Positions 1,464 through 48,714 of a stretch of 51,600 bases of DNA are shown piece by piece; within the stretch, counting starts at the first letter, position 1, and each line of letters starts with the position of its first letter. Origin of the DNA: Planctomycetota bacterium (GTDB lineage Bacteria; Planctomycetota; UBA1135; UBA2386); NCBI GenBank assembly GCA_947501605.1, contig CANMWZ010000030.1, positions 1 to 51,600 on the forward strand, read 5' to 3'. Both the position numbers and the translations under genes were made by a program. The notes beneath the pieces were generated by a model. It searched no databases, was not told the origin of the DNA, and was given only the letters and a program-made list of their open reading frames with translations.

Positions 1464-3056
1464 TCAGGGCACGGTCGCCTTGACTCTTGCCGTCATTTGC
1501 GCCGTTCCGCGCGCGAGGTCAAGGTCAAGGCCTTGCACATGGAGTTGGACGCCGGACATCGACGCCGACGACGGAACGGGAAACGACACCGTCGCCTCGT
1601 ATGCAAACGGGTACCGGATGGTCGGCCCGAGGATCCCGAGTTGCGGATCGAGCAACACCAGCCCGAGGCCAGGGATGTCGAAGCGCGCTGCCGCCGGGGA
1701 GATCATCGAGACCAGTGCATGGCCGGCCTGCGCGATGAAGCCGACATCGAAGCTGCCGCCGCGGGTGGGAGTACGTATGAGACGTGCCTCCCGGTACTGA
1801 TTGCTCATAGCCACGATTCCGCCCCCGAACACGCCCGTGATCACATCGAGATCTCCATCGCGGTCGAAATCGATCATGGTGCGCGCCGTTGCGAGACCTG
1901 CTCCAGGCGTCGATATGGACGGACCTGGCAGAAGGCGCCCGTTCACGTTCTCCCAGAGCGCGTGTCGGTCCCCAGCCACGAGGAGGTCCTCGTCGCCGTC
2001 CTGGTCGAAATCGAAAGCCGCGGTCTTGCGGGCTTGCCCCAGAACCGTAGGCAATAACGAAGTGCCATTCGGCATGGAGGTCGAGCCAGCAGCCGCGAGA
2101 AATGCGTGCACGGGCCACGTGGTAGCCGTCACCGGGTAGCTAATGACCACGTCGCGATGCCCGTCGCCATTGACGTCGATGGCAGACACGGAGGGCGAGT
2201 AGACGTAGACAAACTGATCTCGGGCCACGAACTGCCCTGCACCCAAGTTCTCGAACAAATAGGTCGGCCCAGAACGGAACTGGTAGGATGTGGTCGCGAA
2301 TACGTCCATATCGCCATCGAGATCGGCGTCCACGAGCACGGAGGGGCCTCCCTGGTATCCCAGCGGCTGAACCACGCTCGTGGCAGTGACGTCAGTGAAA
2401 ACCCCACTCCCCTGATTGATGTAGGTTCTTGCCCCCGCACTCGTGCAGAGGAAGAGGTCCATGTCGCCATCTGCGTCGAAGTCCATCGTCACACCGGACG
2501 ATATGGCAACTCGCATGGTCGTCAGCTGGAATCGCTCCTCGAGATGGCCTTGGGCATTGCGCAACCAGATACTCGGAACCTCAGGTCCGAGATTGCCTTG
2601 GATCGGCGAACTCCGCACGAACCGACTCGTGAGCACATCACCTTTGCCGTCGCCGTCGAAGTCACCGATCATGGGCAGCGAGTACTCGAGCACAGTCCAA
2701 GCTGGCGGAGTGACTGTGGATTGGAGGATGGTCGACGAGACCCAGTCACCCGACCCGAGCATGCTGTTGTAGGCTAGGCCATAGACGGTGCCAGAGGAAG
2801 CTCCATTGACCGGTCGAACGATCTCAAGAACCCCGTCCCCGTCTACGTCGAGTTCGATCTGCATTCCGTCGAAAACCGGCGACCCGCCGGGGAAAACAAC
2901 ACCACGGAAAGGCGGCGGGCGCAGGATCGGATCATGACTACCGACCTGCCCAGCCTCAGCCACACGCGCTGCGGACCGGATCGTCCAAGGCGATGACTGC
3001 GCAAGGCAAGCGGCACCGACGAACCAAAGGCTCAGGAGCGAGAAATGAAAGCTCAT
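1464..3056 (-). CDS. Secreted FG-GAP/VCBS-repeat protein with shared C-terminal domain
   Basis: Signal peptide MSFHFSLLSLWFVGAACLAQ and seven DxDGDGxxD-type repeats (DVDGDGVLE, DFDGDGKGD, DFDADGDMD, DADLDGDMD, DVNGDGHRD, DFDQDGDED, DFDRDGDLD). The ATG at 3056 overlaps the upstream stop. Confidence 0.85.
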   Translation of the reverse strand: MSFHFSLLSLWFVGAACLAQSSPWTIRSAARVAEAGQVGSHDPILRPPPFRGVVFPGGSPVFDGMQIELDVDGDGVLEIVRPVNGASSGTVYGLAYNSMLGSGDWVSSTILQSTVTPPAWTVLEYSLPMIGDFDGDGKGDVLTSRFVRSSPIQGNLGPEVPSIWLRNAQGHLEERFQLTTMRVAISSGVTMDFDADGDMDLFLCTSAGARTYINQGSGVFTDVTATSVVQPLGYQGGPSVLVDADLDGDMDVFATTSYQFRSGPTYLFENLGAGQFVARDQFVYVYSPSVSAIDVNGDGHRDVVISYPVTATTWPVHAFLAAAGSTSMPNGTSLLPTVLGQARKTAAFDFDQDGDEDLLVAGDRHALWENVNGRLLPGPSISTPGAGLATARTMIDFDRDGDLDVITGVFGGGIVAMSNQYREARLIRTPTRGGSFDVGFIAQAGHALVSMISPAAARFDIPGLGLVLLDPQLGILGPTIRYPFAYEATVSFPVPSSASMSGVQLHVQGLDLDLARGTAQMTARVKATVP

Positions 3057-5989
3057 CGAAGCACCCTCATTCCTCCAGTCAATCCAACGCCCAGAGGAGA
3101 CCACTCCCTACCGATTTTCCCATCAACAGCCATAAATGCTCGCGCGCGAGTCTCCCTATTGCCTGCGATCATGCCTACCCAGTCTTCAGACAGTCGCACA
3201 TCACCTGCCCCTCCTCGTGGTGCGCTGGCTGCAAGTCCGCTCCATGGATTCGGATTGATTACGTCAGTCAGTACCACCAGAAACGTCTGCAAGTTGTTCC
3301 CGACTTGCGCTGCTGGAGACAACTGCCTGAGCTCACAGTCTACGCGAACACCCAGATCCCAGCCGTTATCCGGAACAATGTCCGGGCACACAGAAACGCC
3401 CATTGCATCGAAAGAAATCAGCGGCTGGAACACGCCGCCGCAATCCGACAGTGGGCCAAATTGACTGGGGGGCCCACTGCCTCCGTCCAGAACATAACGA
3501 TAGGGGCTAGGCAACACTCTCAGCCCAGCTCCCGGAGGATTGATGTGCGCAGCGACAACCCCACCATTGTAGCCGCTTAACCCAAACCACACCATAGGCG
3601 GGGCGCCATGGGGAACTTGCCCTACATTGTAGAAGAGCAGCGGATTGTCCCAAGCCAGACCCAATTCTCCAAGCTCATGTTCACAGTAGTCTGGGTGAGC
3701 ACTGTAGGGATCGAACGCAAGTTCCGGAAGCGGAAATGTCAATCCCAGCGCGTCGAAGAAGCCCCCCCAAGGATGCGCATCATGAAGCAAGTGAGGACTG
3801 AAATCGCAGGGCAAATTGCGCATGAACGGAGCATGACTCCCGACTTCGAAGCTGCGTCGCCGAAAGGACCTAAGCGTTATGGGATCTTGTGGAAATGGCT
3901 GATAAATGACTTGCGCCCAGCCCGCAGTGTAGTTAGACGTAGACAACAAGCCGTTGTAGTATGGGGACGCCGGGAGGGGCAGTGGCTCCTGTCGGACATT
4001 CTCGCTCCATGGCAGGAAGCCGATTACAGAATTCGCATCCGGCCTCGCATGACCAGCCGAGCCAGGCTGGCCAATGTAGTAAATCTTGTTGTATGCACCC
4101 CCAGGCACTTCTGGCATGCTCGGACTCAGTGCACAGTACATGCGCGTATTCGGAACGTATCCAGCCATGATCAACTTCGCGCACTGATCAGCACCAATGT
4201 CGATACTGCCCAGAGATCCTGGTGCGGCACCACTCATCGGCTCAATCCTCGGATTGCCAAAGCCCTCGCAATCGTAGTCCCACCCGTGCACAGAAGCATC
4301 CTCTGCATTCAGAGGCAGGCCGGGAGCGCTGATAATAAGTGCTCCATTATCGTTCGCCAGCATTGGGGACCCATTCGTCCCCACGCTTGCGGCAGGGAAG
4401 TTAATGCCCGCGCCAATCAGCGGATTGGGCACGTTGGGGACCGCACTCGGCAACTGACGAGCGAATGGAGTAATTCGCAAGTCATTGTGGAAAACATCGT
4501 CCTGGAGGACCTCTCTCACGAGTAGTGACCCATACTGCTGCGTATTCACTCGGGGCGGCTCCGGGGCCGGCAGGGCAATGAAGCCCGTCTGCGCGATAAC
4601 CCAGTTCGGAGTAGAACTAAGACTAACTCCACGATTGGCGCGGCCCGCATACCAGGCATTGTAGTCCCGCTGATCCTGAGTCGGGAGAACTTGGCCATTA
4701 TGGAAGCGGACCCTCTGACTTTGAGGCCACACACCCTCGAATGCCGACGAACCATCGTCTTGCTCTTGATTCGAGGCATAGAACAAGTTGTTGACCATGA
4801 GAGGGTTATGGTTGTTGACATACGGCGACGTGGGAGGAGGCGTATCCGTGGCCAACATTCCAGACCACAGCCCCACAAAATTGTCGTAGAAGGTGTTATT
4901 AATTATGACCGGCTCGTGCACTCCAAACCTGTCGACAAGCCCGTCTCTCCAACCAAAACTGTCGATCCCCACGCCCACCAAGTTGTCGATGAAAAAGCAA
5001 TTCGTGATTCGGATTCGCGCAATTGAAGCGTGTCCCATGATGTGTATGCCAATCCCCCGACAGTGCCGCTTCGTGCCGCTGGATGACACATCGATGACAG
5101 ACCTCGCACCTCGGATCGTGATGCCGTCTATGAACGCATTGTCGTGCTGAAGGCCAGCACCCCCAGTCCAAACCTGGATTATGTCTGAAGTGCGCTGCAT
5201 CGGAGTCAACGCGGCGTCAGATCCTCTAGCATCAAACACCGTGTCCAACGCGCTCGTTCCCTGAATGGACACTCTGTCATGCAAAGCACTGGGCCCAAGG
5301 TCTCCTCCAGGAGTTCTTCCGCCCAGCAGCACCGGGAAGTCCTCGCCATTCCATGGGAGACCCGACTCTGGGTCGATCTCACCTTCGAATGCCGCGGGGC
5401 CGTAGAGGCCAGGCAGACAGTGAATCACCACGAAGGCGACGGTAAGCCCAGTAGCTGGGTTAGTCCAGGGGAGCTCAGCAACGTGTGGAAGCTGCGGGCC
5501 GTTCGGGCTTACCTTGGAGAACAAGGAATTCACGTATTCGATCGCCCCCCATTCTCCTGTCAGTGTGCGGAACGAGTATGGGGCATGCTGGATGTAGCCT
5601 GAGATGCCTTGCCCCGATGGCGAATTGGGCGAATCCCAGGGGGAGCATTCTTGTCTTGTATCCAGTGGCCTAGGCCTCGTCGCTCTTTCAAATGGCGGGC
5701 CCAACCCGGACTGCCACACGTAGAAGTCGTGAAGCATGGGTGCAACCGGCGTGTTGATACCGTTCGGAGGGTCGGGTTCGCGATTGCCAGGATTCAGCGC
5801 AATTGCCTCGGCGTTGTCCCCGAAGATCGGATCGACGTATACATGGAACACAAAGTTGGTCCTGCCAACCCCTCCCTGCGCCCGAGCGGGAACAGCCATC
5901 ACGGCTAGAACCAGCCCAGCAAGCAACGCTTCCCCAGTGCCGGCGCGGGACGCCTTGCGAAAGTTCTCGACAAACATCGAAAGCTCCAC
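3053..5989 (-). CDS. Large secreted protein with DUF1565-like/parallel beta-helix region
   Basis: 978 aa ORF with signal peptide ending PARA-Q. Contains VYVDPIFGDN, LPGLY, GEDFPV, VSIQG..TVFD, beta-helix-like IDGITIRG/ITNCFFIDN/IINNTFYDN/MVNNLF, and GNPRI...DIGADQ. Confidence 0.7.
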   Translation of the reverse strand: MELSMFVENFRKASRAGTGEALLAGLVLAVMAVPARAQGGVGRTNFVFHVYVDPIFGDNAEAIALNPGNREPDPPNGINTPVAPMLHDFYVWQSGLGPPFERATRPRPLDTRQECSPWDSPNSPSGQGISGYIQHAPYSFRTLTGEWGAIEYVNSLFSKVSPNGPQLPHVAELPWTNPATGLTVAFVVIHCLPGLYGPAAFEGEIDPESGLPWNGEDFPVLLGGRTPGGDLGPSALHDRVSIQGTSALDTVFDARGSDAALTPMQRTSDIIQVWTGGAGLQHDNAFIDGITIRGARSVIDVSSSGTKRHCRGIGIHIMGHASIARIRITNCFFIDNLVGVGIDSFGWRDGLVDRFGVHEPVIINNTFYDNFVGLWSGMLATDTPPPTSPYVNNHNPLMVNNLFYASNQEQDDGSSAFEGVWPQSQRVRFHNGQVLPTQDQRDYNAWYAGRANRGVSLSSTPNWVIAQTGFIALPAPEPPRVNTQQYGSLLVREVLQDDVFHNDLRITPFARQLPSAVPNVPNPLIGAGINFPAASVGTNGSPMLANDNGALIISAPGLPLNAEDASVHGWDYDCEGFGNPRIEPMSGAAPGSLGSIDIGADQCAKLIMAGYVPNTRMYCALSPSMPEVPGGAYNKIYYIGQPGSAGHARPDANSVIGFLPWSENVRQEPLPLPASPYYNGLLSTSNYTAGWAQVIYQPFPQDPITLRSFRRRSFEVGSHAPFMRNLPCDFSPHLLHDAHPWGGFFDALGLTFPLPELAFDPYSAHPDYCEHELGELGLAWDNPLLFYNVGQVPHGAPPMVWFGLSGYNGGVVAAHINPPGAGLRVLPSPYRYVLDGGSGPPSQFGPLSDCGGVFQPLISFDAMGVSVCPDIVPDNGWDLGVRVDCELRQLSPAAQVGNNLQTFLVVLTDVINPNPWSGLAASAPRGGAGDVRLSEDWVGMIAGNRETRARAFMAVDGKIGREWSPLGVGLTGGMRVLR

Positions 5990-6171: not shown

Positions 6172-8025
6172 TCAGTAGCCCAACGTCCACCGCGCCGCCG
6201 CCGTCAACCCGATCGGAACCCCCGCCCCCGGCGCGAAGTCGACGATCGCGCCCTGCAGGAACAACTGCACCCCGACGAACGCCACGTCGTACGGCACCGC
6301 CACCGCCACCGACGACGGCAACCCCGACCCAGCCCACGGCGGCAGGATCCAGTTCAGCACCTCGGTGGCCGGATCGACGAGCAGTTCCCCCGGCGCTCCA
6401 CCACCCACCATCCCATATCCCGGCAGCGGCACACCGCAGGGAAAGCCCGGCGCCGGCGCCGTCGTCAGCAGCACGATCGGCAGCGAACCCACCGACTGCG
6501 TCGCCGCGGGATTGTCGACGAAGATCACCGCCGTGCCCGCGAGCGAAGGCCCCCCGTTCACGAACAGACTGCCCGTCGGATTGAGCCCGCAACCGTAGTA
6601 CGTCGTCGCATTGCGCACAGGCACCAGTTGCGCATTGCTGCTGATCGCCTGCACGACCGTGTCCCCAGGGCTCGTGCGCAGATCCGTCCACGACAGCACC
6701 GCCGCGCCCGAGCGCGTCGACGCGCACACCAGCCGCAGCTTGTCGCTCGCGAACGTGCTCGCATAGGTCGCCGACGTCCACACCACGTTGCCCGCGAAGT
6801 CCATCTGGAACCCCCGCACTTGGTCGTTCTGCGTCGCCCCGATCTGCTCCAACACGAAGCCGAACGCCCCGCCCGCGAACGCCGCCGCGACCGGCGCGAA
6901 GTAGGTCGTGCTCCCCACCGGCACCAACGAGATGCCGCTGCTGCCCCACAGCACACCGCTCGCGTCGACGCGTTGCGCCGTGATGCCCCACTGCGACTGC
7001 GCCGTGTTGCGTTCGTTGAAGTAGACGATCGCCGATTGCGTCGCCACGTCGACTGCCATCGCCGGATCGAACTTGCTGTTGCCGTTGGTCGACAGGTCGA
7101 GCCCGTTGTGCGCGTAGAGCTCGTTGCCCAGCGCGTCGAGTCGTTGAACGCGCGCGCTGAACGCCGTCGCCGGCGCGAAGTGCCACGACATCCATGCACC
7201 ACCGAACCCGTCGGCGATCATCTTGTGTTGGTGCGCGATCGGCACCGAGGTCTGGTCGAAGACTGGCAGCCGCACGCCGGCATTCCAGATCGGCGTGCCC
7301 GCCGCATCGAACTTCATCGCGTGCAGATGTCGCGCCGCCGTGAAGGCCGTGGCCCGCATCCAGCTCAGGATCGCACTGCCGCTGTCGCTCGCGACGATCT
7401 GCACGAAGCCCGGTGTCGCGCCCGCGTCGCCGGCGTAGCCGATCCCGTCTTGCGCGAACCGCGGCGTGCCCGCCGGATCGAGCCATTGCAGTCGCACCGT
7501 GCGCGTGACCGAGTTGGCCCATGCGAATGCGAAGTGCCCGTCGCTGGTCTCGACGACGCGCGGGTTCGCTTCGAAGTCGCCGTTGGCCGAGAGCGCCACA
7601 CCATTTGCCCCCCAGATCGAGACGCCCGTCGGATCGATGCGATAGGCATAGCAATCGAGATCTCCGCCCGCGCGCGTATCCGTGAACGTCAATACACAGA
7701 GTCCCGTGCTGTCACAGATCAGGTCCCAATCGACCAGCGAGGTCGATTGCGGATTGTTGGAGACCACGATGCCGTTGTGCGCCCATTGCTCCTGCCCGTC
7801 GCGGTCGAGCCGCTGCAGCCGCACTTCGTAGCCGCCGTTGCGGTTGTCGAACCAGCCCACGTAACAGCCGCCGTCCGGCAGCAGCGCGATCTTGTTGAGC
7901 ACTTGCTCGCCGGCGCCGTCGGCGACCGAGAGGTTCTGCGCCGCGTTGGGCGACCATTGCGCTGCCGCGGAGGCCGCGACGAAGGAGAACGAGACGAGGG
8001 CCGCGAGGGAAAACGTCGTGCGCAT
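6172..8025 (-). CDS. Secreted repeat (probable beta-propeller) protein with shared C-terminal domain
   Basis: Signal peptide ending AAA-Q and about seven ~55 aa repeats ending [QR]xxDxxGxxx[WFY]xxxG (WAHNG, WGANG, FAQDG, WNAG, YAHNG, WGSSG, WTS). Confidence 0.8.
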   Translation of the reverse strand: MRTTFSLAALVSFSFVAASAAAQWSPNAAQNLSVADGAGEQVLNKIALLPDGGCYVGWFDNRNGGYEVRLQRLDRDGQEQWAHNGIVVSNNPQSTSLVDWDLICDSTGLCVLTFTDTRAGGDLDCYAYRIDPTGVSIWGANGVALSANGDFEANPRVVETSDGHFAFAWANSVTRTVRLQWLDPAGTPRFAQDGIGYAGDAGATPGFVQIVASDSGSAILSWMRATAFTAARHLHAMKFDAAGTPIWNAGVRLPVFDQTSVPIAHQHKMIADGFGGAWMSWHFAPATAFSARVQRLDALGNELYAHNGLDLSTNGNSKFDPAMAVDVATQSAIVYFNERNTAQSQWGITAQRVDASGVLWGSSGISLVPVGSTTYFAPVAAAFAGGAFGFVLEQIGATQNDQVRGFQMDFAGNVVWTSATYASTFASDKLRLVCASTRSGAAVLSWTDLRTSPGDTVVQAISSNAQLVPVRNATTYYGCGLNPTGSLFVNGGPSLAGTAVIFVDNPAATQSVGSLPIVLLTTAPAPGFPCGVPLPGYGMVGGGAPGELLVDPATEVLNWILPPWAGSGLPSSVAVAVPYDVAFVGVQLFLQGAIVDFAPGAGVPIGLTAAARWTLGY

Positions 8026-8049
8026 GCGAAGCGAAGCCGGGTCGGTGGA

Positions 8050-29020: not shown

Positions 29021-29728
29021 TCAAAACCAGAGGATGCGGCGCAGCGCGTGCAGCAGCCCGCGACCCTCCCGAACGGCGAGTCGCTGCAAGTCGAACTCAT
29101 GCCGCTGCCGCTCGACTTCGCTGGGCACCTGGTTCGCGGCCCCGATCGGGCAGTGGCGAACGACCTCGCATCCCGTCGTGCATGATCCGCTGAGGCGTTC
29201 GTCGTAGCAGCGGCGCAGATCCGACGCACCGAGGCCGTCGTGCACGTCGGCTGGACAGGCAGCTACGCAGGGTCGCGAACAGTTGCAGCACGGCTGGAAG
29301 CGATCGGCAATGGTCGCATCTGCAATCGCGCCGAACGGCAGACCTTCGACCAACAACACGGCTCTGACCGACACCCGCGGCCCATACGCCGGGTGCAACA
29401 GTCGGTGGATGACCGGCGACACCGTGCCAAACCCCGCGGCCTCGCCGAGGCAGGCGAAGCGAATGGTACTGCGCAGCGGCGGCGCCAGGCGTGCGCGAAG
29501 GCCGGCCTCGGTCAGCATGCGCAACAGTTCTCCCGGGCCTTCAGCTTCCGCCAGCCTTGGCGCACCGCTACCGAGCACGATCGCCGTGCCGCAGCCGGCG
29601 AACTCGCGCGCGCATCGCCCTTCGGCCGGTTGCGCCGCATCGAAGCGCTGCGTGTCGACGATGCCGAACAAGTCGTAGCCGCGGGCGCGGGCGCGTTGTT
29701 CGAGCGCGATCAGGAGAGCTTGGGACAT
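29021..29728 (-). CDS. QueG/CblC-like Fe-S protein (possible cobalamin-binding reductase)
   Basis: GEAAGFG, LLHPAYGPRVSVRAVL, and Cys clusters PCCNCSRPCVAACP and C..CTTGCEVVRHCPIG. Confidence 0.65.
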   Translation of the reverse strand: MSQALLIALEQRARARGYDLFGIVDTQRFDAAQPAEGRCAREFAGCGTAIVLGSGAPRLAEAEGPGELLRMLTEAGLRARLAPPLRSTIRFACLGEAAGFGTVSPVIHRLLHPAYGPRVSVRAVLLVEGLPFGAIADATIADRFQPCCNCSRPCVAACPADVHDGLGASDLRRCYDERLSGSCTTGCEVVRHCPIGAANQVPSEVERQRHEFDLQRLAVREGRGLLHALRRILWF

Positions 29729-29794
29729 CGACGCGGGCGTTTTCGTCGGCGTCTCGCTGCGGCACAAGCCCCGAGCTTGACCCGTGGGTCACGA

Positions 29795-29960
29795 TCGAGC
29801 TAGGTTCTGCCCACCCCGAACGAGGGAAGCCGGTGTGAATCCGGCGCTGTCCCGCAGCTGTCACCGAGGACGAACGTTCCAAAACCACTGGTAGCGCCGT
29901 GTTGGTGCCGCTGGGAAGGTGGAACTAGTAGGTGGATCCGGAAGCCAGAACACCTCGTTG
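29795..29960 (+). ncRNA. Cobalamin (B12) riboswitch
   Basis: AGGT (P1 5') ... AGGGAAgccGGTGtgAATCCggcgCTGtCCCgCAgCTGT ... CCACTG ... GGGAAGG ... AGCCAGAACACCT (B12 box/P1 3'), in canonical order. Confidence 0.93.
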
Positions 29961-30157
29961 GGCGGCAGGCCGAAAGGCTTGCTCCAGACCGCCACGGCGC
30001 GAACGACGTCCGCGGCAGGAGAACACCCGAGCGAGTCCGACTGCCAACAGCGCCATTGCTGCGGGTTTTGGGGCCGCCGTGGTGCGCATCCTGCCTCGGA
30101 CCATCGCTGTGACGGCCCAAACTCCGTCCGGCGGTCCCCCGCCGAGGAGCGTTCGTG

Positions 30158-31495
30158 ATGTCCGTTCTTGTCTTGCTGTCTCCGTCTCTGCGCGCCGCCA
30201 CGCTTTCGGTGTGCGCGCTTTCCTTGACCGCTGCCCTCTTGGCACAGGTCCCGGCCGCCGGCTACCAGAGCCAACTTCAATCGGTGCCCGGCTCGGCCAA
30301 CAGCCTTGCCGTCGTCGACGAAAATGTGGTTTGGTTTGACGGCGTGACCCTGTTCGTCGACTCGCCGAGCCAGCCGAGTCGCGCGCTGCTGACGCTTCCT
30401 GGGTTCCGCTTTGGCTCGTTCACGTTACCGATCGGCAACGGCAACCTGCTGTTCGCGGAGAGCAGCAACGCCCAATTGTGGCGCGTGCCCCTGGACCCGC
30501 TCGGCACGCCGTCGCTGCTGACGACCGTGCAGTTCGCGTACGACGCGGTCGCGATCGGCACGCGCATGGCCGTGGTCTCCGCCAAGCCCGGCGGCTTCGC
30601 TTCGGCCCAGAACGACCTGATCGCTGTCGACCTCGTGACCGGTGCGCAGTCGACGATTGGCGTCATTCCTGGTGCTTCGGGCCCGCTGGCCCTCAATGCG
30701 GCCGGTGAACTTCTCTATGCCACGGCGTCGCTCAACTTCCCGCCGCCGCCCGCGAGCGTCGAGATCCTCAGTTGGACTGCCGGCCAGTGGTCGCTGGCGC
30801 TGAATGGTGGCCTCGTGCTGACGCGCGCGAACGCGCACCTCGTGCTCAGCGGTATCGACTCGGCCGGCGACCTCGCGGTCGACGGAGATGACGATTTGAT
30901 CGCGGCGGACTGGGCCAATTCGCGCCTGCTCGAGATCAACGACCATCGCACGACACCGACTGTGTCGACGCTCATCGACTACGGCACCGCCGCGGTCTCG
31001 CCCGCGACTCTCGCGTTCCGTCAGGGCACCGTCCCAGGCACCGAGTTCGAGCCATTTGGTCGAACGGGCGCCGGTGAGTTGCTGGTTGTCGAGACCAACT
31101 TCTTCTCGATCACCCAGGTCCGCTGCCTGACAACGGCGCCGAGCACGCTAGACCTCGTTGGCACATCTCAGCCGGTCGCCGCAGGTCCGTTCACGCTGCT
31201 GTTGCAGAACGGGCCGCCCGCCGGCCTGTCGCTGTTCGCCATCGGCACTGTCGGCACTGGGGTGATGCTGCCATTGCATCTGCCCGGCTTCGAACAGACG
31301 TTGCCATGGGAGGCCGGGCTGCTGTACCCGCTGCTCACCTCACTGGTGCCCCTCGACGCAGCCGGCTCCGGGCCGCTCGGCCTGACGAATCCGGGGTTCC
31401 CCGGTGGTCTCTGGATTCACACCCAGACGATGTTCGTCACGGCGGATGGCTCGCAGTTGGGTACCTCCAACGTGAGTTCCGTGCAGCTGCAATAG
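30158..31495 (+). CDS. B12-riboswitch-controlled secreted protein (beta-propeller-like) with shared C-terminal domain
   Basis: AGGAG RBS at 30145-30149, signal peptide ending LLA-Q, and beta-rich repeats (SGPLALNAAGELLY, AGDLAVDGDDDLI). Confidence 0.8.
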   Translation: MSVLVLLSPSLRAATLSVCALSLTAALLAQVPAAGYQSQLQSVPGSANSLAVVDENVVWFDGVTLFVDSPSQPSRALLTLPGFRFGSFTLPIGNGNLLFAESSNAQLWRVPLDPLGTPSLLTTVQFAYDAVAIGTRMAVVSAKPGGFASAQNDLIAVDLVTGAQSTIGVIPGASGPLALNAAGELLYATASLNFPPPPASVEILSWTAGQWSLALNGGLVLTRANAHLVLSGIDSAGDLAVDGDDDLIAADWANSRLLEINDHRTTPTVSTLIDYGTAAVSPATLAFRQGTVPGTEFEPFGRTGAGELLVVETNFFSITQVRCLTTAPSTLDLVGTSQPVAAGPFTLLLQNGPPAGLSLFAIGTVGTGVMLPLHLPGFEQTLPWEAGLLYPLLTSLVPLDAAGSGPLGLTNPGFPGGLWIHTQTMFVTADGSQLGTSNVSSVQLQ

Positions 31496-31622
31496 GCCGG
31501 CCCGAAGCTGGGTGCGGGCCGCCGTCGGCCCTGCCCTTGCAGAACCGTTACAGTGGCCTGCTATGGGGGCGGAGCGAAGTAAGCCGTAATAGGGCCCTCT
31601 CATCTGCTCGCCCCGAATGCCC

Positions 31623-34600
31623 ATGCGCCAATCCGTCGTCGTCGTCCTGATACTGACCGCCCTGGTCGCCACCGCCGGAATGCTCCTGGTGCCCGACCTC
31701 TTCACCGGCGACGCCCTTCCGATCACTCGCTGGAGCGAGGCCGATGAAATCGTGGTCGAGGCGCGCGCGGAGGACACGGACCTCGCCGTCGGCGAGGCGT
31801 TCGCGCCGCAGACCCAGCGAGAGGAAGTCGAAGTCGAGGCCCTCGGCGCCGACGAACGCACGGAACTGACCCTGCGCGGGCGGGTCGTCGACCGCTACCG
31901 CGCGCCGGTGGCTAGCGCCAAGGTATGGCTCGACTTCGGCCGCGGCGGCCAGCGCGGCCGCGGTGATCGTTCGCGCCGCGTACCCGAGCCGGTGCAGACC
32001 GACAGCGATGGCCGTTTCGCCTTCCAGGGGCAGGCCTTTCGCAATCTGCGCGTCAATCTGCTGGTCGTGCACGGCACGCACGCGCCGACGCAGTTTGACC
32101 GCAACCTCGGCGAGGTCGGCAGCGAGCTCGACCTCGGCGAATTGGTCGTCACCGACGGTGGCGAGCTGATCGGCCGAGTCACCGACCTCGGTGGCAACGG
32201 CATCCCAGCGGCCGCAGTGCAGCTGCAACCGGACAGCGACAACTGGATGCGTTTCCAAAGGGATCGCGAGTCTCTGCTGCCAGCGCAAGCGACCGACAAC
32301 AATGGTTACTACCGCTTCGCCAACGTCACGGCCGGCGATTGGCGCGTAGCGGCGACGGCGAAGCGCTACGAAAACGGCACCAGCGACTCGGCAACCGCGA
32401 TCGACAACCAGCGCACCGAAGTCGCCGACATCCTGCTCGGCCCGGGCTTCGAACTCGCCGGCATCGTCATGGACCGACAGGGTCAACCGATTGTTGATGC
32501 CGAGGTCGCGGCGCGCCCAAGGCGTCAACCAGACAACACCGGCGGTGGTCGCGGTGGCCGCGGGGCACGTGGCGGCCCAGGTGGCGGTGGCGGTGGCGGC
32601 AACGACTACCGGACGCAGACCGATGCCCAGGGTCGCTTCTTGCTCGAGCACCTGCCCGATGCACTGGTCGATCTGTCGGCGCAGAAGCAAGGCTACCTCG
32701 ACGCACAACTCACGGAACTCGACCCCGAGCAGACCCAGCCGGTCTACCTCACGATGGAGGACGGGCTGCAGATCCGCGGCTCCGTGACCGACGTCGTTGC
32801 CAACGCCCCGGTAACACGCTTTTCGGTTCGGGCCCAATGGCGCCGCGCCTTGCCAGCGGACGCGGGTGTCGAGACTGAGATCCAAACCCTCGTGCAGCAG
32901 ATGCGCGACGGCAATGTCGACGAAGCAACCCGAGCGCAGTTGCAGAACCGCATGCAGACGCTGCGCGGTCAGCTGCGAGGCAACACTGGCGGCGGGCCAT
33001 TCGGCATGGCGGGCGGTGGTCCCGACGCGCAAGGTGGGCGCGGCGGCCGCGATCGCGGGGCACGAGCTGAAGACCACCCGGGTGGCGCCTTCGTCGCGAC
33101 GGGCCTGCAGGCTGGCATCTACACCGTGGTCGTCGAGTCCGACGCACACGCCGTCTACCGCAGCGAGGACGTGGAACTACGCCTCGGCGCACCGGCGCCC
33201 GAGATCCAGGTCGGCCTGACGCGCGGATTCGTCGTCAAGGGCACGGTCAAGAGCGCCCTTGGCCAGCAGATCGCGGGTGCGACCGTCGAGCTGCGGCGGG
33301 CCACGGAAGCGCCGGCCCAGCCGGCGACCACGCCGGCAGCCCAGCCCTCGGATGCCAACGTCCGCGGTGGCCGCGGTGGTCGCGGCGGCCGCGGCGGCAA
33401 CATGCAGACGATGTTCGAGCAATGGACTGGGGGCGGCGCGATCGAGACCGCCACGACCGACAAGGACGGCGCCTTCACGATCGAGCACGCCCCTTCTGGT
33501 CGCTACACAGTCGATGCGCGCGCGAAGGGCCACCAGAACGCGAAGACTGAGCCGTTCGCGCTCGGCAATGACGTGCAGGGCATCTCCTTGTCACTCAACC
33601 TGCTCGGTCGCCTCGGCGGCCGCGTTCTCGGGGCCACACCAGAACAGCTGCAGGAAGTGCGCGTGCTTGCCGTCCCGATCAGCAAGGAGCGCGACCTTGG
33701 CGCGATGTTCCGCGGCGGTGGTGGCAACGGCGGGCAGCCGTTCGCGATGGTCTCGCCCGACGGCACCTACCTGTTCCGCGAGTTGCAGCCCGGCGACTAT
33801 GCGGTGCGCGCGTTTCTCGGCCAGGGCATGCGCGAACTCTTCCAGCAGTTCAACGCGGGAGAGATGGTCGCCGACGTCGCGGTGACGAGCGGCGAACAGG
33901 CCGAACTCGACGTCACGGTGCTGACGCCACAGACCGGCATCGTGCGCGGCTCGGTGCTGCACAACAGCGCCCCCGCCACGGGCTTCCAGGTCGCGCTGCA
34001 GTTGCAGAGCAACGACGGCAGCGGCACCGATCCGGGTGCGGGATCCATGTTTGGCGGCCGTGGCGGCCGTGGCGGCGGCGGGCGCAATAGCAGCGCGCGC
34101 GTCGACGAGCAGGGGCGCTTCGAGATCAAGGACGTGCAGGCGGGCACCTACACCCTGACCGTCAGCGCCGACCGGCGGTCCGGCACGCTCCATCGTGAGA
34201 CCATCTTCGTGCACCCGCAGGGCACCACGGAGCCACTGATCACGATCGCGACCGCAGCTATCGACGGCACGATCGAGGCGACCGACGGCACCAACGCAGC
34301 CGACCTCGACGGCAGCGTCATCTTGCTCCCCGGCGTCACCGAGGTTCCTACCGACTTGGCGGCGCTGCGCGGTGGCGGCGGGTTCCGCGCCCGCATCGAA
34401 GGCGGCAAGTTCGCGGTCGAACAGCTGCCGCAGGGCAACTACCTCGCCGTCGTCAACATCCGCGGCCGCGAGCGCACATCGGCGCCAGTCACCGCCGTAC
34501 TGGGGCAGCGGACCCAGGTCCGCGCCCCGCTCGGGGCCATTGATCAGAACGCGAATGCGCAACGCGGCAACGCCCCGCAGCGGCAACCCGGGGCGGCGGC

Positions 34601-34718
34601 ACCTGGCAGCGGTGGGACTGCGCCGGGTGCGGCCCCAAGAGGGGCTCGTGGCGCGCAAGGCGGGCGCAATGGCGGCGGCGCACCGGCCCCGAATCCGCCC
34701 GCGCGCCGCGGCGGCTGA
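31623..34718 (+). CDS. Membrane-anchored carboxypeptidase-regulatory-like (transthyretin-like) repeat protein with RGG-rich inserts
   Basis: N-terminal TM and repeated GRVVD..G.P[VI]..A.V...TD..GRF....L..G.Y.V units; several GGRGG tracts. Confidence 0.88.
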   Translation: MRQSVVVVLILTALVATAGMLLVPDLFTGDALPITRWSEADEIVVEARAEDTDLAVGEAFAPQTQREEVEVEALGADERTELTLRGRVVDRYRAPVASAKVWLDFGRGGQRGRGDRSRRVPEPVQTDSDGRFAFQGQAFRNLRVNLLVVHGTHAPTQFDRNLGEVGSELDLGELVVTDGGELIGRVTDLGGNGIPAAAVQLQPDSDNWMRFQRDRESLLPAQATDNNGYYRFANVTAGDWRVAATAKRYENGTSDSATAIDNQRTEVADILLGPGFELAGIVMDRQGQPIVDAEVAARPRRQPDNTGGGRGGRGARGGPGGGGGGGNDYRTQTDAQGRFLLEHLPDALVDLSAQKQGYLDAQLTELDPEQTQPVYLTMEDGLQIRGSVTDVVANAPVTRFSVRAQWRRALPADAGVETEIQTLVQQMRDGNVDEATRAQLQNRMQTLRGQLRGNTGGGPFGMAGGGPDAQGGRGGRDRGARAEDHPGGAFVATGLQAGIYTVVVESDAHAVYRSEDVELRLGAPAPEIQVGLTRGFVVKGTVKSALGQQIAGATVELRRATEAPAQPATTPAAQPSDANVRGGRGGRGGRGGNMQTMFEQWTGGGAIETATTDKDGAFTIEHAPSGRYTVDARAKGHQNAKTEPFALGNDVQGISLSLNLLGRLGGRVLGATPEQLQEVRVLAVPISKERDLGAMFRGGGGNGGQPFAMVSPDGTYLFRELQPGDYAVRAFLGQGMRELFQQFNAGEMVADVAVTSGEQAELDVTVLTPQTGIVRGSVLHNSAPATGFQVALQLQSNDGSGTDPGAGSMFGGRGGRGGGGRNSSARVDEQGRFEIKDVQAGTYTLTVSADRRSGTLHRETIFVHPQGTTEPLITIATAAIDGTIEATDGTNAADLDGSVILLPGVTEVPTDLAALRGGGGFRARIEGGKFAVEQLPQGNYLAVVNIRGRERTSAPVTAVLGQRTQVRAPLGAIDQNANAQRGNAPQRQPGAAAPGSGGTAPGAAPRGARGAQGGRNGGGAPAPNPPARRGG

Positions 34719-42066: not shown

Positions 42067-44340
42067 TCACCACATCAAACGGCCACCGAGAATCGCGTTG
42101 AAGCCCGGTTGATTCACACCCGACCCGTGGATGCGGTAGCTCGTGTCGGTGACGTTCTCCAACGTCAGCAAGAACTCAACGTTGTCCGAGACCTTGTAGC
42201 CAGAGTTGATCATCATCGCGAAGTAGCGCGGCGTGCCGGCCGGCGGAAAGCGCGAAGTATCGGCTCGGTCGGCGGAGTTGAGGCGACCTTCGTGCGCGGC
42301 CGCGATTCCACGTGTCTCGACCCAGAAGCGACCCTGCGGCTGGGTCCAACGCAATGCCAGCGAGCCGGTCACCGGCATCAGGCGCGAGATCGGCTGCGTC
42401 ACTGCCGTGAGACTGCCCGTTGGGAAGGCATCGGCCTCGCCATCGACGTAGGCGACGAAGCCCGAGGCCAACCAGTCGCGATCCATCTGCCACGACGACT
42501 CGAGTTCACCGCCCGCGAGCCAGCCGCTACTGCCGTTGGTCGTGGTGGTGATGATCTCGCCGGTGCCTGGCACGACGCCGATTGGTCGGCTCGTGATGAG
42601 GTCTTGGATGTCGGTGTAGTAGACGGCAGCCTGCAGACCGACGTCCTTGCCGACGTGGCGGGTGCCCACTTCGTAGGTAAGGAAATGCTCGGGCTCGACG
42701 TCGAGCGAACCGGTCGAGATCACACCCGTGCGCGAGGACTTCAACGAACTCAGATCGTCGATGTTGGGCGCGCGGAAGGCCTGGCTCGCACCGCCGTAGA
42801 GACTCCACTCGGGATCGAGCCGGTAGCTCGCGCGCAGATTGAAGGTCGCTTCTTCCCAGTCCTTGTCGGCACTGATCGGCGTGCCCCCGTCGTTGAGTCG
42901 GCCGATGTCGGCTTTGGCGTAGGTGTAGCGACCACCGAGCGTGAACTCGAGATCGTCGCTGGCCGGCAAGCGACCCTGCGCATAGACACCGAGCAAGTCG
43001 TACGTCGCGTCGTCTCCCAGCGGGCCCTGAATCGCCGTGGTGTTGGAGATCAGGGCGTTGCTCGGATTGAACAGCAGCGTGTTGGTGTTCGAGTCGACCT
43101 CGTCGCGGTAGTAATCGACGCCGTAGGCAATCGTCGCCGCGTCGACCTTGCTCTCGAGATTCAGTGCGGCGCCGAGCGTGTCGACCTGCGTCCGGTCGAG
43201 CTGCACGCTGGTGTTTGGCGCGACGGTACGCGTGCGGTTGAAGTGCTCGTCCGAGCGCTGGTACGAGATCGTCAGCTTGTAGGCATCGACGGCGCCGCCG
43301 AGGTCCTCACCGGCGACACGCGCGTAGGTGAGCTCTCGTTCTTGGTCGTAGATGCGTGCGAGATCGGGATTGGTCAACGACGTGCCGCGCCACGGCTCGA
43401 AGTAGATCGTGTTGTGCGTGCGCCACACGTCGTCTTGCTCGACGGCTTGGTGCGCGACGGTGAAGGTGTGCTTCTGCGACAACGCTGCGTCGAAGCGAAG
43501 GTCGTAGTCAAACTCCTCGTAGCCCGTCTTCTCCATCGTGCCGAGCATCCGGTCGCGGATGTCGCCAAAGTCACGGTAGGTCGCACCGACGTGCAAGCCA
43601 AACGAACCGCCTTCGCCCACCTGGGCCTCGAGCCTTCCGGTGTGCGAGCCGCCGTTGGTGTCGTAGCGATAGAGCGTTGATCCATGGGAGAAGCCGCGGC
43701 CCGCGGCCTCGCTACGGAAGTCGGCAGCGCGTGTGTGCAAGTTGATCGTGCCGCCCGCCGCGTCGGAGCCGTAGAGCACCGAGCCCTGGCTCTTGATCAC
43801 TTCGAGGCGATCGATCGAGAACGCGTCGATCGTGTTCCAGTACTGCACCGGACCGCTGCGGAAGCCCGAGTTGTTGAAGCGGATACCGTCGATCAGCAGC
43901 AAGTTCTGACGACCCGTGAAGCCGCGGATGTACGGCGAACCGTGACCATGCGTGGTCTTCTGCACCATGACGCCCGGAACGAGACTGAGCGCTTCGGGCA
44001 GCGTGCGCACGCCGCGCTGCATCATGGTCTGCTGATCCAGGCTCTGGAACGTGTAGGGCGTCGCGAGCTCGTCCTCGGCAAAGCCCGAGGCTGTCACCAT
44101 CACGCGCGGGACAGGCTTGTTGTCGCTTCCCTTAGGCCCTGCGGGGACCGGAGACCCTGCGGGGACCGGAGACACAGGCTCTTGGCCTTGGCCTGCGGCT
44201 GCGGCGCCCGGGTCGGGCCTCGCCACCGCCGTCGACGGTGACGGGCTCGGAGTCTGACTTGGCGCCTGAGCCAGAGCCGTGAGGGACAAGAGGGTGCACG
44301 CCGCAGCGAGCGGCAACGGGGAGCCGGACGAGGTGGACAC
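42067..44340 (-). CDS. TonB-dependent outer-membrane receptor
   Basis: Signal peptide, TonB-box-like VMVTAS, plug PGV..Q...IRGF...LLLIDG...LEVIKSQGSVLYGSDA.GG.IN, FRAPN, LENVTD..Y and C-terminal W. Confidence 0.95.
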   Translation of the reverse strand: MSTSSGSPLPLAAACTLLSLTALAQAPSQTPSPSPSTAVARPDPGAAAAGQGQEPVSPVPAGSPVPAGPKGSDNKPVPRVMVTASGFAEDELATPYTFQSLDQQTMMQRGVRTLPEALSLVPGVMVQKTTHGHGSPYIRGFTGRQNLLLIDGIRFNNSGFRSGPVQYWNTIDAFSIDRLEVIKSQGSVLYGSDAAGGTINLHTRAADFRSEAAGRGFSHGSTLYRYDTNGGSHTGRLEAQVGEGGSFGLHVGATYRDFGDIRDRMLGTMEKTGYEEFDYDLRFDAALSQKHTFTVAHQAVEQDDVWRTHNTIYFEPWRGTSLTNPDLARIYDQERELTYARVAGEDLGGAVDAYKLTISYQRSDEHFNRTRTVAPNTSVQLDRTQVDTLGAALNLESKVDAATIAYGVDYYRDEVDSNTNTLLFNPSNALISNTTAIQGPLGDDATYDLLGVYAQGRLPASDDLEFTLGGRYTYAKADIGRLNDGGTPISADKDWEEATFNLRASYRLDPEWSLYGGASQAFRAPNIDDLSSLKSSRTGVISTGSLDVEPEHFLTYEVGTRHVGKDVGLQAAVYYTDIQDLITSRPIGVVPGTGEIITTTTNGSSGWLAGGELESSWQMDRDWLASGFVAYVDGEADAFPTGSLTAVTQPISRLMPVTGSLALRWTQPQGRFWVETRGIAAAHEGRLNSADRADTSRFPPAGTPRYFAMMINSGYKVSDNVEFLLTLENVTDTSYRIHGSGVNQPGFNAILGGRLMW
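44138..44173 (-). repeat. Perfect 18-bp tandem repeat (SPVPAG twice) in the TonB receptor N-terminal linker
   Basis: cctgcggggaccggagac occurs twice in tandem. Confidence 0.9.
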
Positions 44341-47420: not shown

Positions 47421-48581
47421 TCAGTTGCCAAGCCGAAGAATGCCGCCACTGGTGACCGCGCCAACCGCGTCGTTGGCGAAGGCCAGAGCCTGCACGTAGA
47501 CCTCGACTCCAGCGAGGTGCGGCAGCATTGGCACCGCGAGCGACCATGTCATGCCACCGGTCGCGGAGGCGGTACCGATCAGCCAAGCCTCCGAGTATCG
47601 CAACGGATTGACGAACAGGAACTCGTCGATGTTGGCCAGCGGCACGGCTGCGGATTCGAGTCCGAGGACGCCGACGATCGGTGCGTACGGGATCATGTCG
47701 CGGATCTGCAGCGAGAACGACGACCCGAGCACTGGGGCACTCGTGCGCCATGCGGCAGTCAGCGTCGGTTCGGACGTGCCAGCACCCTTGCCAAACTCGG
47801 AAAAGCAGGCACCGGACGGGGTCGGAGGCGGCAGGACCTGGGTCAGCACCTGGAACACGCGGTCCGCGATGATCTGCTCGCCGGCTGCGTTCGGATGCAC
47901 TTGGTCCGCGAGGTGCAACTGACTGTCGATGCCGGTGTGCAGATCGACGACCCGAACACCGGGCAACGACGCAAGGCCAGCAATCGCCGCGTTCACGGCC
48001 AGGATGCCCTGATCGAGACCGTAGATCGGACCACTCGGCGGCAAGTTGAGCGCCGGACTCGGCACCAGCACGGCCGGCAGCGGCGGCACCTGCGCGATGA
48101 CGATCTGCATGTTCGCGTTGTAGGGCGGGTTCTGCAGGATCCCGATCATCGAGCGCAAGAACTGGTCGGCGAGGTCGGCAATCTGCTGCGCGCTGAGCGA
48201 GTAGAACACCGTGCCTTTGATGACGTCGTTGGTGCCGAGCTGGATCACGGCGATGTCCGCGTCGAACTGCGGGATCGGCGCCAGCAACTGGAAGCACATC
48301 TCGAACGACGACTCGCCCGAGAAACCGTAGTGGTCGAGGTCGTAGGTCGGCCGAGTCGGAGTGCGCCCACCGATGACGCCGCGCCGCCCGCCCACGAAGT
48401 CAAAGCAGTAACCGGCACCGTTCAATCGCTCCCACAGCGGCTGGCGGAACGTCGGACGAGTAATCGTGCCCTCGGTGATCGAGTCGCCGATGAAGACGAT
48501 GCGCGGATGCGGTGCCTGCGCGAGGAGGCTCGCGGCCATGGCGACGCATGCGAAGAACCCGGACACGATAGGGTGGCGCAT
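47421..48581 (-). CDS. Secreted SGNH/GDSL hydrolase with shared C-terminal domain
   Basis: Signal peptide ending LLA-Q; GDSITEG, FDFVG, H.G.SG, LGTND and DQVHPN. Confidence 0.9.
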   Translation of the reverse strand: MRHPIVSGFFACVAMAASLLAQAPHPRIVFIGDSITEGTITRPTFRQPLWERLNGAGYCFDFVGGRRGVIGGRTPTRPTYDLDHYGFSGESSFEMCFQLLAPIPQFDADIAVIQLGTNDVIKGTVFYSLSAQQIADLADQFLRSMIGILQNPPYNANMQIVIAQVPPLPAVLVPSPALNLPPSGPIYGLDQGILAVNAAIAGLASLPGVRVVDLHTGIDSQLHLADQVHPNAAGEQIIADRVFQVLTQVLPPPTPSGACFSEFGKGAGTSEPTLTAAWRTSAPVLGSSFSLQIRDMIPYAPIVGVLGLESAAVPLANIDEFLFVNPLRYSEAWLIGTASATGGMTWSLAVPMLPHLAGVEVYVQALAFANDAVGAVTSGGILRLGN

Positions 48582-48714
48582 AGGCGGCAAAGGCTACGCT
48601 CATTGTGCGTTTGTGCCAGTGCGAAGCCGCAGGCGACGGGACGGTCGTTCGCGACGTTTCGATGTCAGCGACTGCAGCGGTGGGCGCAACGGTCCGCAAA
48701 ACCCCGAAAACGTC

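Follow-up and report, generated by a model that had tools for sequence, protein, structure and literature searches.

An unnamed six-bladed propeller protein behind a cobalamin riboswitch in Planctomycetota: a candidate corrinoid-capture factor

The riboswitch and the gene that it precedes

The stretch of DNA analysed here, hereafter the window, comprises 51,600 nucleotides (nt) from a Planctomycetota bacterium, and its subject is a cobalamin (vitamin B12) riboswitch lying upstream of a gene for a predicted exported β-propeller protein of 445 amino acids (aa), encoded by the open reading frame (ORF) 30158-31495 on the + strand. The genome of the window is denoted G000; other G numbers denote the genomes of relatives and L numbers the loci of relatives. 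The riboswitch and the parts of the protein are placed as follows.

29789..29959, + strand: cobalamin riboswitch aptamer (RF00174 and nhmmer profile)
30158..30244, + strand: predicted Sec signal peptide, residues 1-29 (hydrophobic helix at residues 11-27, low predicted local distance difference test score, pLDDT)
30245..31150, + strand: six-bladed NHL-type β-propeller, residues ~30-331 (AlphaFold model, VIA structure comparison, PDB sequence profile)
31151..31495, + strand: C-terminal β-sandwich domain of immunoglobulin (Ig)/macroglobulin-like type, residues 332-445 and the stop codon (domain model)

A scan of the whole window against Rfam returned RF00174 as its sole hit, at 29823-29955 (+), with 80.1 bits (E 3.3e-18; gathering score 31.5), and thus bears out the first-pass annotation of this DNA, which had placed a canonical B12 riboswitch upstream of the gene. 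The local match spans positions 45-169 of the 189 in the model, and its alignment takes in the B12-box region AGCCAGAACACCU at 29943-29955. With a profile built from 46 riboswitches of relatives the aptamer could be extended to 29789-29959 (nhmmer, E 2e-27), and the same profile found no second cobalamin riboswitch at E<=10 in the 4.65-Mb, 91%-complete assembly; a search with RF00174 itself across the genome gave one copy (150 of 228 candidates scored).

Conservation of the pairing across the family

Homologues of the protein were retrieved by a word-indexed search, which yielded 46 relatives of 351-457 aa, those with names being recorded as "hypothetical protein" of Planctomycetota metagenome-assembled genomes (MAGs), and by an exhaustive search, which yielded 1786 cluster representatives at E<=1e-3, 654 at E<=1e-10 and 265 at E<=1e-30. 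At the strictest of these thresholds every named member comes from Planctomycetota or an unclassified bacterium, and none has an annotation beyond "hypothetical protein". A match is present in 49 of 401 genomes sampled from the phylum, including all sampled members of three families: f1 (5/5), f2 (12/12) and f25 (8/8).

Across this family, homologues in other genomes likewise follow B12 riboswitches, a linkage that the first-pass annotation had named as the natural check on its proposal: a same-strand RF00174 match lies directly upstream of the homologue in 49 of 59 loci in total, divided as follows.

Best-match loci: riboswitch upstream in 28 of 29, L031 being the one without
Second copy in G199: riboswitch upstream in 1 of 1
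Weaker or second-copy matches: riboswitch upstream in 15 of 20, with 3-352 nt to the first ATG
Named MAG loci, with 700-nt flanks: riboswitch upstream in 5 of 9 (one has merely 309 nt upstream), these nine possibly overlapping genomes already counted

In 27 of the best-match loci the aptamer ends 63-301 nt before the match; at L011 the distance is 1291 nt, with another gene in between. The set of weaker matches takes in the f56 proteins, which are 515-661 aa long, consist of the propeller only and match the profile at E 1e-5 to 1e-7. Aptamers across the linked loci score 34-120 bits. A census of cobalamin riboswitches in G157, G119, G397, G199 and G350 found one or two per genome, with this gene always among the targets; in G397 and G350, as in G000, it is the sole target. 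Because there are only 1-2 riboswitches per genome of about 5 Mb, the contribution of chance proximity is negligible. The cobalamin riboswitch does target this gene, and the relationship is conserved. No paper on this riboswitch-propeller family, and none joining a cobalamin riboswitch with the NHL repeat, was found in a literature search whose coverage lay outside the subscription journals.

Features of the propeller protein

The first-pass annotation had described a propeller-like protein with a signal peptide, and both parts of that description are upheld by the hydrophobic N-terminus and by an AlphaFold model built with 32 homologues (pLDDT 90.5, predicted template modelling score 0.84), in which 24 strands form six four-stranded blades and a β-sandwich. 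The predicted mature end begins at the invariant Q30, and Q30, G35 and Y36 are all invariant or nearly so among the 32 homologues. Further along the protein, F88, F99, W108, Y128, F147, N152, D242, D244, D246, D251, E312, E379, N411 and Q423 are invariant. The first 40 columns of the alignment hold no conserved cysteine, and the C19 seen in the window protein is a variable position. Since no conserved cysteine follows the signal segment and Q30 is invariant, the signal peptide is more likely of type I than that of a lipoprotein. Each of the 32 homologues is acidic; the median isoelectric point is 4.2, the net charge about -19 and the number of lysines 0-2.

The annotation had recognised none of the known B12 families in the protein, and profile searches agree: no Pfam or NCBIfam family matches it, and a PDB sequence profile gives the same picture, matching only the NHL-derived Pizza proteins (E 1e-14) over the blade at residues 221-266. 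Even at E<=1 the only Pfam family to appear is NHL, at E 0.16, with no SGL, Arylesterase, PQQ, PF08450, PF16819 or PF01497. At the level of fold, the best VIA match is 6jt5_A (Z 24.0, root-mean-square deviation, rmsd, 2.8, 269 residues aligned), followed by 2p4o and 2qe8 (Z 23.7), and the best 50 matches are all six-bladed propellers, with Z running from 24.0 down to 20.1. NHL-type propellers are well placed among them (Z 23.1 to 1rwi_B, 22.8 to 6fpt_A and 22.5 to 9jur_A). The protein thus displays the fold and an NHL-like repeat signature of the NHL-repeat six-bladed propeller clan, with the Pfam NHL match itself staying below threshold; SMP-30/gluconolactonase (PF08450) gives no Pfam match at E<=1, yet is alike in fold (Z 23.7 to 2p4o).

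Modelled alone, the C-terminal domain has a pLDDT of 92.4, and its best match is 7s62_A (Z 9.2; Foldseek E 6e-4). With the best Z at only 9.2, this fold is to be regarded as generic. The annotation had assigned to the protein a "shared C-terminal module". When the C-terminal 140 aa from 9,891 ORFs of G000 were clustered, one group of 66 emerged, and a hidden Markov model (HMM) of that group finds 105 ORFs of the genome at E<=1e-3. This common, unnamed C-terminal domain is about 130 aa long, has the motifs G.PGC ... IP..P.F.G....QA..D ... SN and ends many otherwise unrelated ORFs; in the window, ORFs with the module lie at 47424-48593 (-), at 6175-8049 (-) and, weakly, at 1467-3107 (-). At E<=10 and under default filtering the module HMM does not return the riboswitch-controlled ORF, which scores 22.3 bits with the filters off (27 C-terminal sequences). 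Its last 125 aa have no significant paralogue in the genome or the window by BLAST or family HMM, apart from one marginal match on contig C34. An hhalign comparison with 21 copies of the module gave E 4e-4 and a probability of 35% over 104 columns, with the NPG..Q..S motifs in register. The domain is thus possibly a divergent copy of the common module. Of the annotation's claim there survives a remote profile-profile similarity, whereas BLAST and the family HMM see nothing; because the comparison gives no better than this E-value and this probability, the module can be called shared only in the sense of a remote, unproven relationship.

The B12 economy of the host genomes

The supply of and demand for B12 were surveyed in five genomes including G000, whose assemblies reach 90-96% completeness; G157 consists of one contig and may be an isolate. 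B12-binding domains (PF02310) are present in all five (in G000 with 7 matches, 5 of them above the cut-off), as is MetH. CbiC, CobS and NrdB, the small subunit of class I ribonucleotide reductase, were found in none of the five. MetE was found in two of them and was not found in G000. The frames of a MetE match at G157:C1:686967-688088 and of a MetH match at G350:C33:139031-139774 each cross one in-frame TGA. With MetH and B12-domain proteins present, and with CbiC, CobS and NrdB not found, the gene content suggests that the examined genomes are probably those of obligate B12 scavengers, unable to make or finish the vitamin and without the classical receptor in the outer membrane.

As for the means of import, G000 has two TonB-dependent receptors, of the heme type and the Xanthomonas/Caulobacter type, neither of them BtuB (TIGR01779 gives 73 bits against a cut-off of 600). 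The window itself encodes a heme/hemoglobin-type receptor (TIGR01785, E 9e-50) at 42067-44340 (-), 11 kb downstream of the propeller gene; this receptor gene lacks a riboswitch, and its product does not resemble BtuB. In G199 a TonB-dependent receptor was not found. At C12 of G000 there is a Peripla_BP_2 and FecCD pair, i.e., an ATP-binding cassette (ABC) system of the BtuF/FecCD type, with no riboswitch detected there.

Architecture of the leader

Between the aptamer and the gene lies a leader with the following elements.

29965..29982, + strand: hairpin of seven pairs with a GAAA tetraloop, directly 3' of the aptamer (folding against shuffles, alignment)
29995..30011, + strand: conserved leader element CGGCGCG-N-ACG(C/U)C (columns invariant between the window and L004, L005, L006 and L008)
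30009..30100, + strand: strongly structured stretch within the extra leader (folding against 200 shuffles)
30129..30149, + strand: CGGCGG/CCGCCG hairpin at 30129-30144, followed by AGGAG at 30145-30149 (read from the sequence)

The leader was aligned between the window and four relatives of the same family (L004, L005, L006 and L008), and the order of elements in this alignment is the aptamer, a hairpin of variable stem and the invariant CGGCGCG..ACGCC element. The first-pass annotation had pointed out the GAAA-tetraloop hairpin at 29965-29982, and this withstands comparison with shuffled sequence: its 7-bp stem folds at -16.4 kcal/mol (z -3.42), with 2 of 200 shuffles equally good. Hairpins stand at the same place after the aptamer in the same-family relatives with different stem letters, and two of the five pairs have changed on both sides.

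In L005, L006 and L008 the CGGCGCG..ACGCC element comes immediately before the Shine-Dalgarno (SD) sequence and the start codon, while the window and L004 alone have an extra 130-150 nt ahead of the start. The most structured part of the leader is the segment of about 92 nt at 30009-30100 (-53.4 kcal/mol, z -4.42, equalled by 0 of 200 shuffles). This insert forms a long, very stable hairpin and has an SD-like AGGAGA where the short-leader relatives truly start. In L004 (~1333-1483, the leader of G157) a frame of about 48 codons, read by eye, begins with an ATG where the relatives have their start codon, ends 4 nt 5' of the ATG of the propeller gene and may be a coupled leader ORF.

The AGGAG at 30145-30149 sits 8 nt before the ATG at 30158, with a GTG at 30155. 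The annotation had set a cggcgg/ccgccg hairpin against this ribosome-binding site (RBS); the hairpin is present at 30129-30144, but it is indistinguishable from shuffled sequence (z -1.64, 16 of 200 shuffles as good). A minimum-free-energy fold of the whole leader suggested sequestration of the RBS by 29869-29880. This pairing was not adopted, the segment being palindromic and required for the aptamer's own helix; the arrangement is also missing from the short-leader relatives, which is a further reason for its rejection. Neither a sigma-70-like promoter nor an intrinsic terminator was found in 29500-31800. Translational control by the riboswitch, as the annotation had proposed, is plausible from the leader's layout; translation, Rho-dependent termination and RNA decay are all candidate modes of its action.

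Presence in RNA libraries

Contigs that match the stretch occur in four metatranscriptome libraries, which derive from three freshwater studies of lake or sediment samples. One such contig (29722-30403) runs across the aptamer into the gene and another (31472-32003) from the end of the gene into the next one. Contigs of this kind show no starts, strand or level and may stem from DNA carry-over, and uncovered bins in runs X13 and X20 are not readable as silence.

Neighbouring genes and other riboswitch targets

On either side of the riboswitch and its gene lie two further genes.

29021..29767, - strand: divergent gene for a Cys-rich protein with ferredoxin-like motifs of the CxxCxxxC type, outside riboswitch control
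31617..34718, + strand: gene for a protein of 1033 aa, anchored in the membrane at its N-terminus and carrying at least 5 CarboxypepD_reg domains (PF13620, E 7e-50; translation)

The CarboxypepD_reg domains of the downstream protein are joined by Gly/Arg-rich linkers with GGRGGRG runs. Genes of this type stand downstream in L004, L006 and L007 only, all in same-family genomes. The 121-nt gap between this gene and the propeller gene showed no terminator, and the two may be co-transcribed. The divergent Cys-rich gene is kept beside the locus in L004, L006, L007 and L008, and its product is 41% identical to the neighbour in G157, which weakly matches QueG (TIGR00276, E 0.002), a B12-dependent enzyme. 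In G157 a BtuF-like Peripla_BP_2 ORF lies beyond the Cys-rich gene and overlaps its 3' end.

Elsewhere in the family a few loci place other genes under the same riboswitch or in the same operon. In L034 and L035 (family f93) the propeller gene is followed by a BtuF-like Peripla_BP_2 gene. The products of these ORFs (L034:8495-9433 and L035:7840-8790, both -) start MVRVVSLLPAATEIV and have no signal peptide; they would therefore be cytoplasmic, though the family is normally periplasmic. At G199:C10 a weakly MetE-like ORF (PF01717, E 1e-5) comes after the propeller gene.

The second riboswitch of G157 and of G119 precedes an unnamed secreted "gene X", with a weak match to the NCBIfam lipoprotein family LIC_13355 (E 8e-13), and gene X is followed in both by DUF71/PF01902 genes and in G119 by DUF6580 too. 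At G199:C1 a single riboswitch is followed by gene X and then by the propeller gene. The gene X loci (L039:665-1789 in G157, L040:440-1474 in G119 and L036:5317-6651 in G199) encode products of 340-400 aa with mutual identities of 39-52%, for which a three-sequence profile reached E 0.45 at best against the PDB and Pfam gave no match at E<=1. For DUF71, a part in B12 salvage has been predicted (PMC3541065). By tblastn, gene X, DUF71, DUF6580 and the MetE-like gene were not found in the genome of the window.

Functional interpretation

These observations are most simply read, with moderate confidence and by analogy with known capture proteins, as describing a B12-repressed extracytoplasmic corrinoid-capture factor that would work in the manner of BtuG while standing outside the BtuG family. 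A role in uptake or capture is the simplest reading because the gene is tied to B12 scarcity, its product is predicted to be exported, the host appears to be a scavenger and the gene is often the sole target of the riboswitch; an uptake role is also the most economical one for genomes that look like those of obligate scavengers. Under such a scheme, the ligand-bound aptamer would shut the gene off when B12 is high. When B12 is low, the propeller protein would be made, exported by Sec and possibly held at the cell surface through its C-terminal domain, where it would capture cobamides outside the cytoplasm and pass them to some importer, thereby helping a B12-auxotrophic planctomycete to take up the vitamin.

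Several points weigh against this interpretation. At 10 of the 59 loci there is no riboswitch in the DNA examined, and seven of these, rechecked at E<=1, gave no subthreshold match either. The propeller fold is generic, with its structural matches spanning lactonases, pyrroloquinoline quinone (PQQ) dehydrogenases, NHL binders and YWTD modules, and neither the sequence nor the listed fold matches connect the protein to BtuG, BtuH, BtuJ/DUF4465 or BtuF. The common module ends about 105 unrelated ORFs, so that the C-terminal domain, should it be a copy of that module, is uninformative on B12. There is no transporter gene in the operon at most loci, and where a BtuF-like gene does follow, its product lacks a signal peptide and therefore would not meet an exported propeller. 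The gene absences that mark the hosts as scavengers rest on assemblies of 90-96% completeness. As regards the translational mode, the hairpin next to the RBS is not significant and no RBS-sequestering helix has been demonstrated in the leader.

A bolder extension of the capture-factor reading, offered tentatively and in itself unlikely, is that Planctomycetota have a BtuB-independent route for B12, in which the surface-tagged acidic propeller would be the primary trap, akin to a "cobalophore", with gene X as its partner in some lineages and with passage through the envelope by a means other than TonB. If true, it would explain how B12 is supplied in G199, with no TonB-dependent receptor found, and in G000, with none of the BtuB type.

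Slightly less likely again is a secreted enzyme of the SGL/NHL clan, either a Ca-dependent lactonase or hydrolase or a PQQ-type oxidoreductase, which would be induced by B12 starvation without itself binding the vitamin; its task would be either to release corrinoids that are bound or conjugated, or to harm nearby cells that contain B12. Lactonases, PQQ dehydrogenase domains and proteins of the SMP-30/gluconolactonase kind are among the best fold neighbours (Z 23-24, with Atlas structure matches in line), and the invariant acidic clusters D242, D244, D246, D251 and E312, together with N152, could hold a metal. However, NHL propellers that bind proteins or ligands score equally (Z 22-23), the matches at the sequence level are solely to NHL-type Pizza repeats, and the Pfam search noted above brought up none of the enzyme families SGL, Arylesterase and PQQ.

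The location of the protein gives rise to another alternative, namely a periplasmic B12 chaperone or store that hands the corrinoid to an ABC importer of the BtuF/FecCD type without any capture at the surface. The predicted type-I signal peptide without a lipobox cysteine, the Peripla_BP_2 and FecCD pair of G000, which is without a riboswitch, and the lack of an outer-membrane partner encoded nearby all accord with this, but nothing here separates the periplasm from the surface, and we hold a purely periplasmic role to be improbable.

A little less probable than that is a surface adhesin or partner-recognition protein, switched on under B12 scarcity, which would attach the cell to B12 producers or particles without binding the vitamin. 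Propellers of the NHL and YWTD types often serve to bind proteins, the C-terminal domain may be the common surface-type tag of the lineage, and the giant downstream CarboxypepD_reg protein (family f1) resembles an envelope protein; against this, the riboswitch pairing persists in distant families, which must differ in habitat and neighbours, and some members share operons with the BtuF-like gene, the weakly MetE-like gene or gene X rather than with adhesion genes.

Finally, B12 riboswitches control cobalt transporters in B12 producers, and the riboswitch might here be a relic, or control something else, with a protein unrelated to B12 or one that captures cobalt ions; this is very improbable given that the pairing is preserved at 49 of 59 loci, where the aptamers score 34-120 bits, and cobalt uptake for B12 synthesis would be pointless because CbiC and CobS were not found in the genomes checked.

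The significance of a corrinoid-capture factor in this phylum lies in the fact that few microbes make B12 and most need it, so that its capture shapes aquatic and soil communities. Beyond Proteobacteria, with BtuB/BtuFCD, and Bacteroidota, with BtuG/H/J/K, the outer steps of its uptake are largely unknown, and here an unnamed family at the level of a phylum is marked by a B12 riboswitch, the most specific of the available regulatory signals. Should corrinoid binding prove true, the propeller would represent a new structural solution for vitamin capture, a possible scaffold for high-affinity B12 binding and a marker gene by which B12 limitation could be traced in freshwater metatranscriptomes. 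Should the protein not bind corrinoids, something unexpected would belong to the B12-starvation response.

Comparison with known systems

In comparison with other RF00174 riboswitches, such as that in the btuB leader of E. coli, the one described here has the same aptamer core, B12 box and position in a 5' leader; it differs in an expression platform of about 200 nt with a lineage-specific structured insert. Among propellers, the protein is akin to those of the NHL/SMP-30 kind, e.g., the PknD sensor domain (1rwi), 2p4o and the NHL domain of TRIM71, with Z 22-24 and rmsd 2.4-3.0, whereas in sequence one blade (221-266) is NHL-like and Pfam NHL reaches merely E 0.16. None of these propeller families is known to be B12-regulated.

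The known accessory binders offer a different kind of parallel. BtuH, BtuJ1/J2 (DUF4465) and BtuK are reported to be signal-peptide proteins that bind B12 via loops and are encoded in riboswitch-regulated loci (PMC13398666; PMC8941943), DUF4465 being a β-jelly roll (PMC13398666). The window protein shares with them a signal peptide, here predicted, and a riboswitch-regulated locus; unlike BtuJ, it has no Pfam match to DUF4465. Nor does it match BtuF/Peripla_BP_2 (PF01497). The first-pass annotation had looked to BtuG and BtuH as structural models, and neither is among the Foldseek and VIA matches listed for the full-length model and for its C-terminal domain alone, nor are BtuJ1/J2 or BtuK, which is no proof that the folds differ.

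BtuG itself is described as a seven-bladed propeller with femtomolar affinity for B12 and a strongly negative face, as having a lipoprotein cysteine and a neighbouring btuB, and as reported in Bacteroidetes only (PMC6143338); in a second source, BtuG1-3 of Bacteroides thetaiotaomicron (PDB 3DSM) are assigned to PF16819 (PMC13398666). In contrast to the seven blades of BtuG, the window protein has six NHL-type blades and an Ig-like tail, and it has no PF16819 match (E<=1), no conserved cysteine and no adjacent TonB-dependent receptor. The proximity to btuB for which the annotation had suggested checking the homologues is likewise not seen: the ORFs downstream at 26 loci include no TonB-dependent receptor, and five extended loci have none. 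Every testable feature of membership in the BtuG family thus fails, and the resemblance is one of functional analogy only. Within that analogy, what the two have in common is a β-propeller outside the cytoplasm (here predicted), a B12-riboswitch locus, a host that scavenges B12 (here probably), accessory capture as the likeliest function and, beside the negative face described for BtuG in the source cited, the uniformly acidic character of the planctomycete family.

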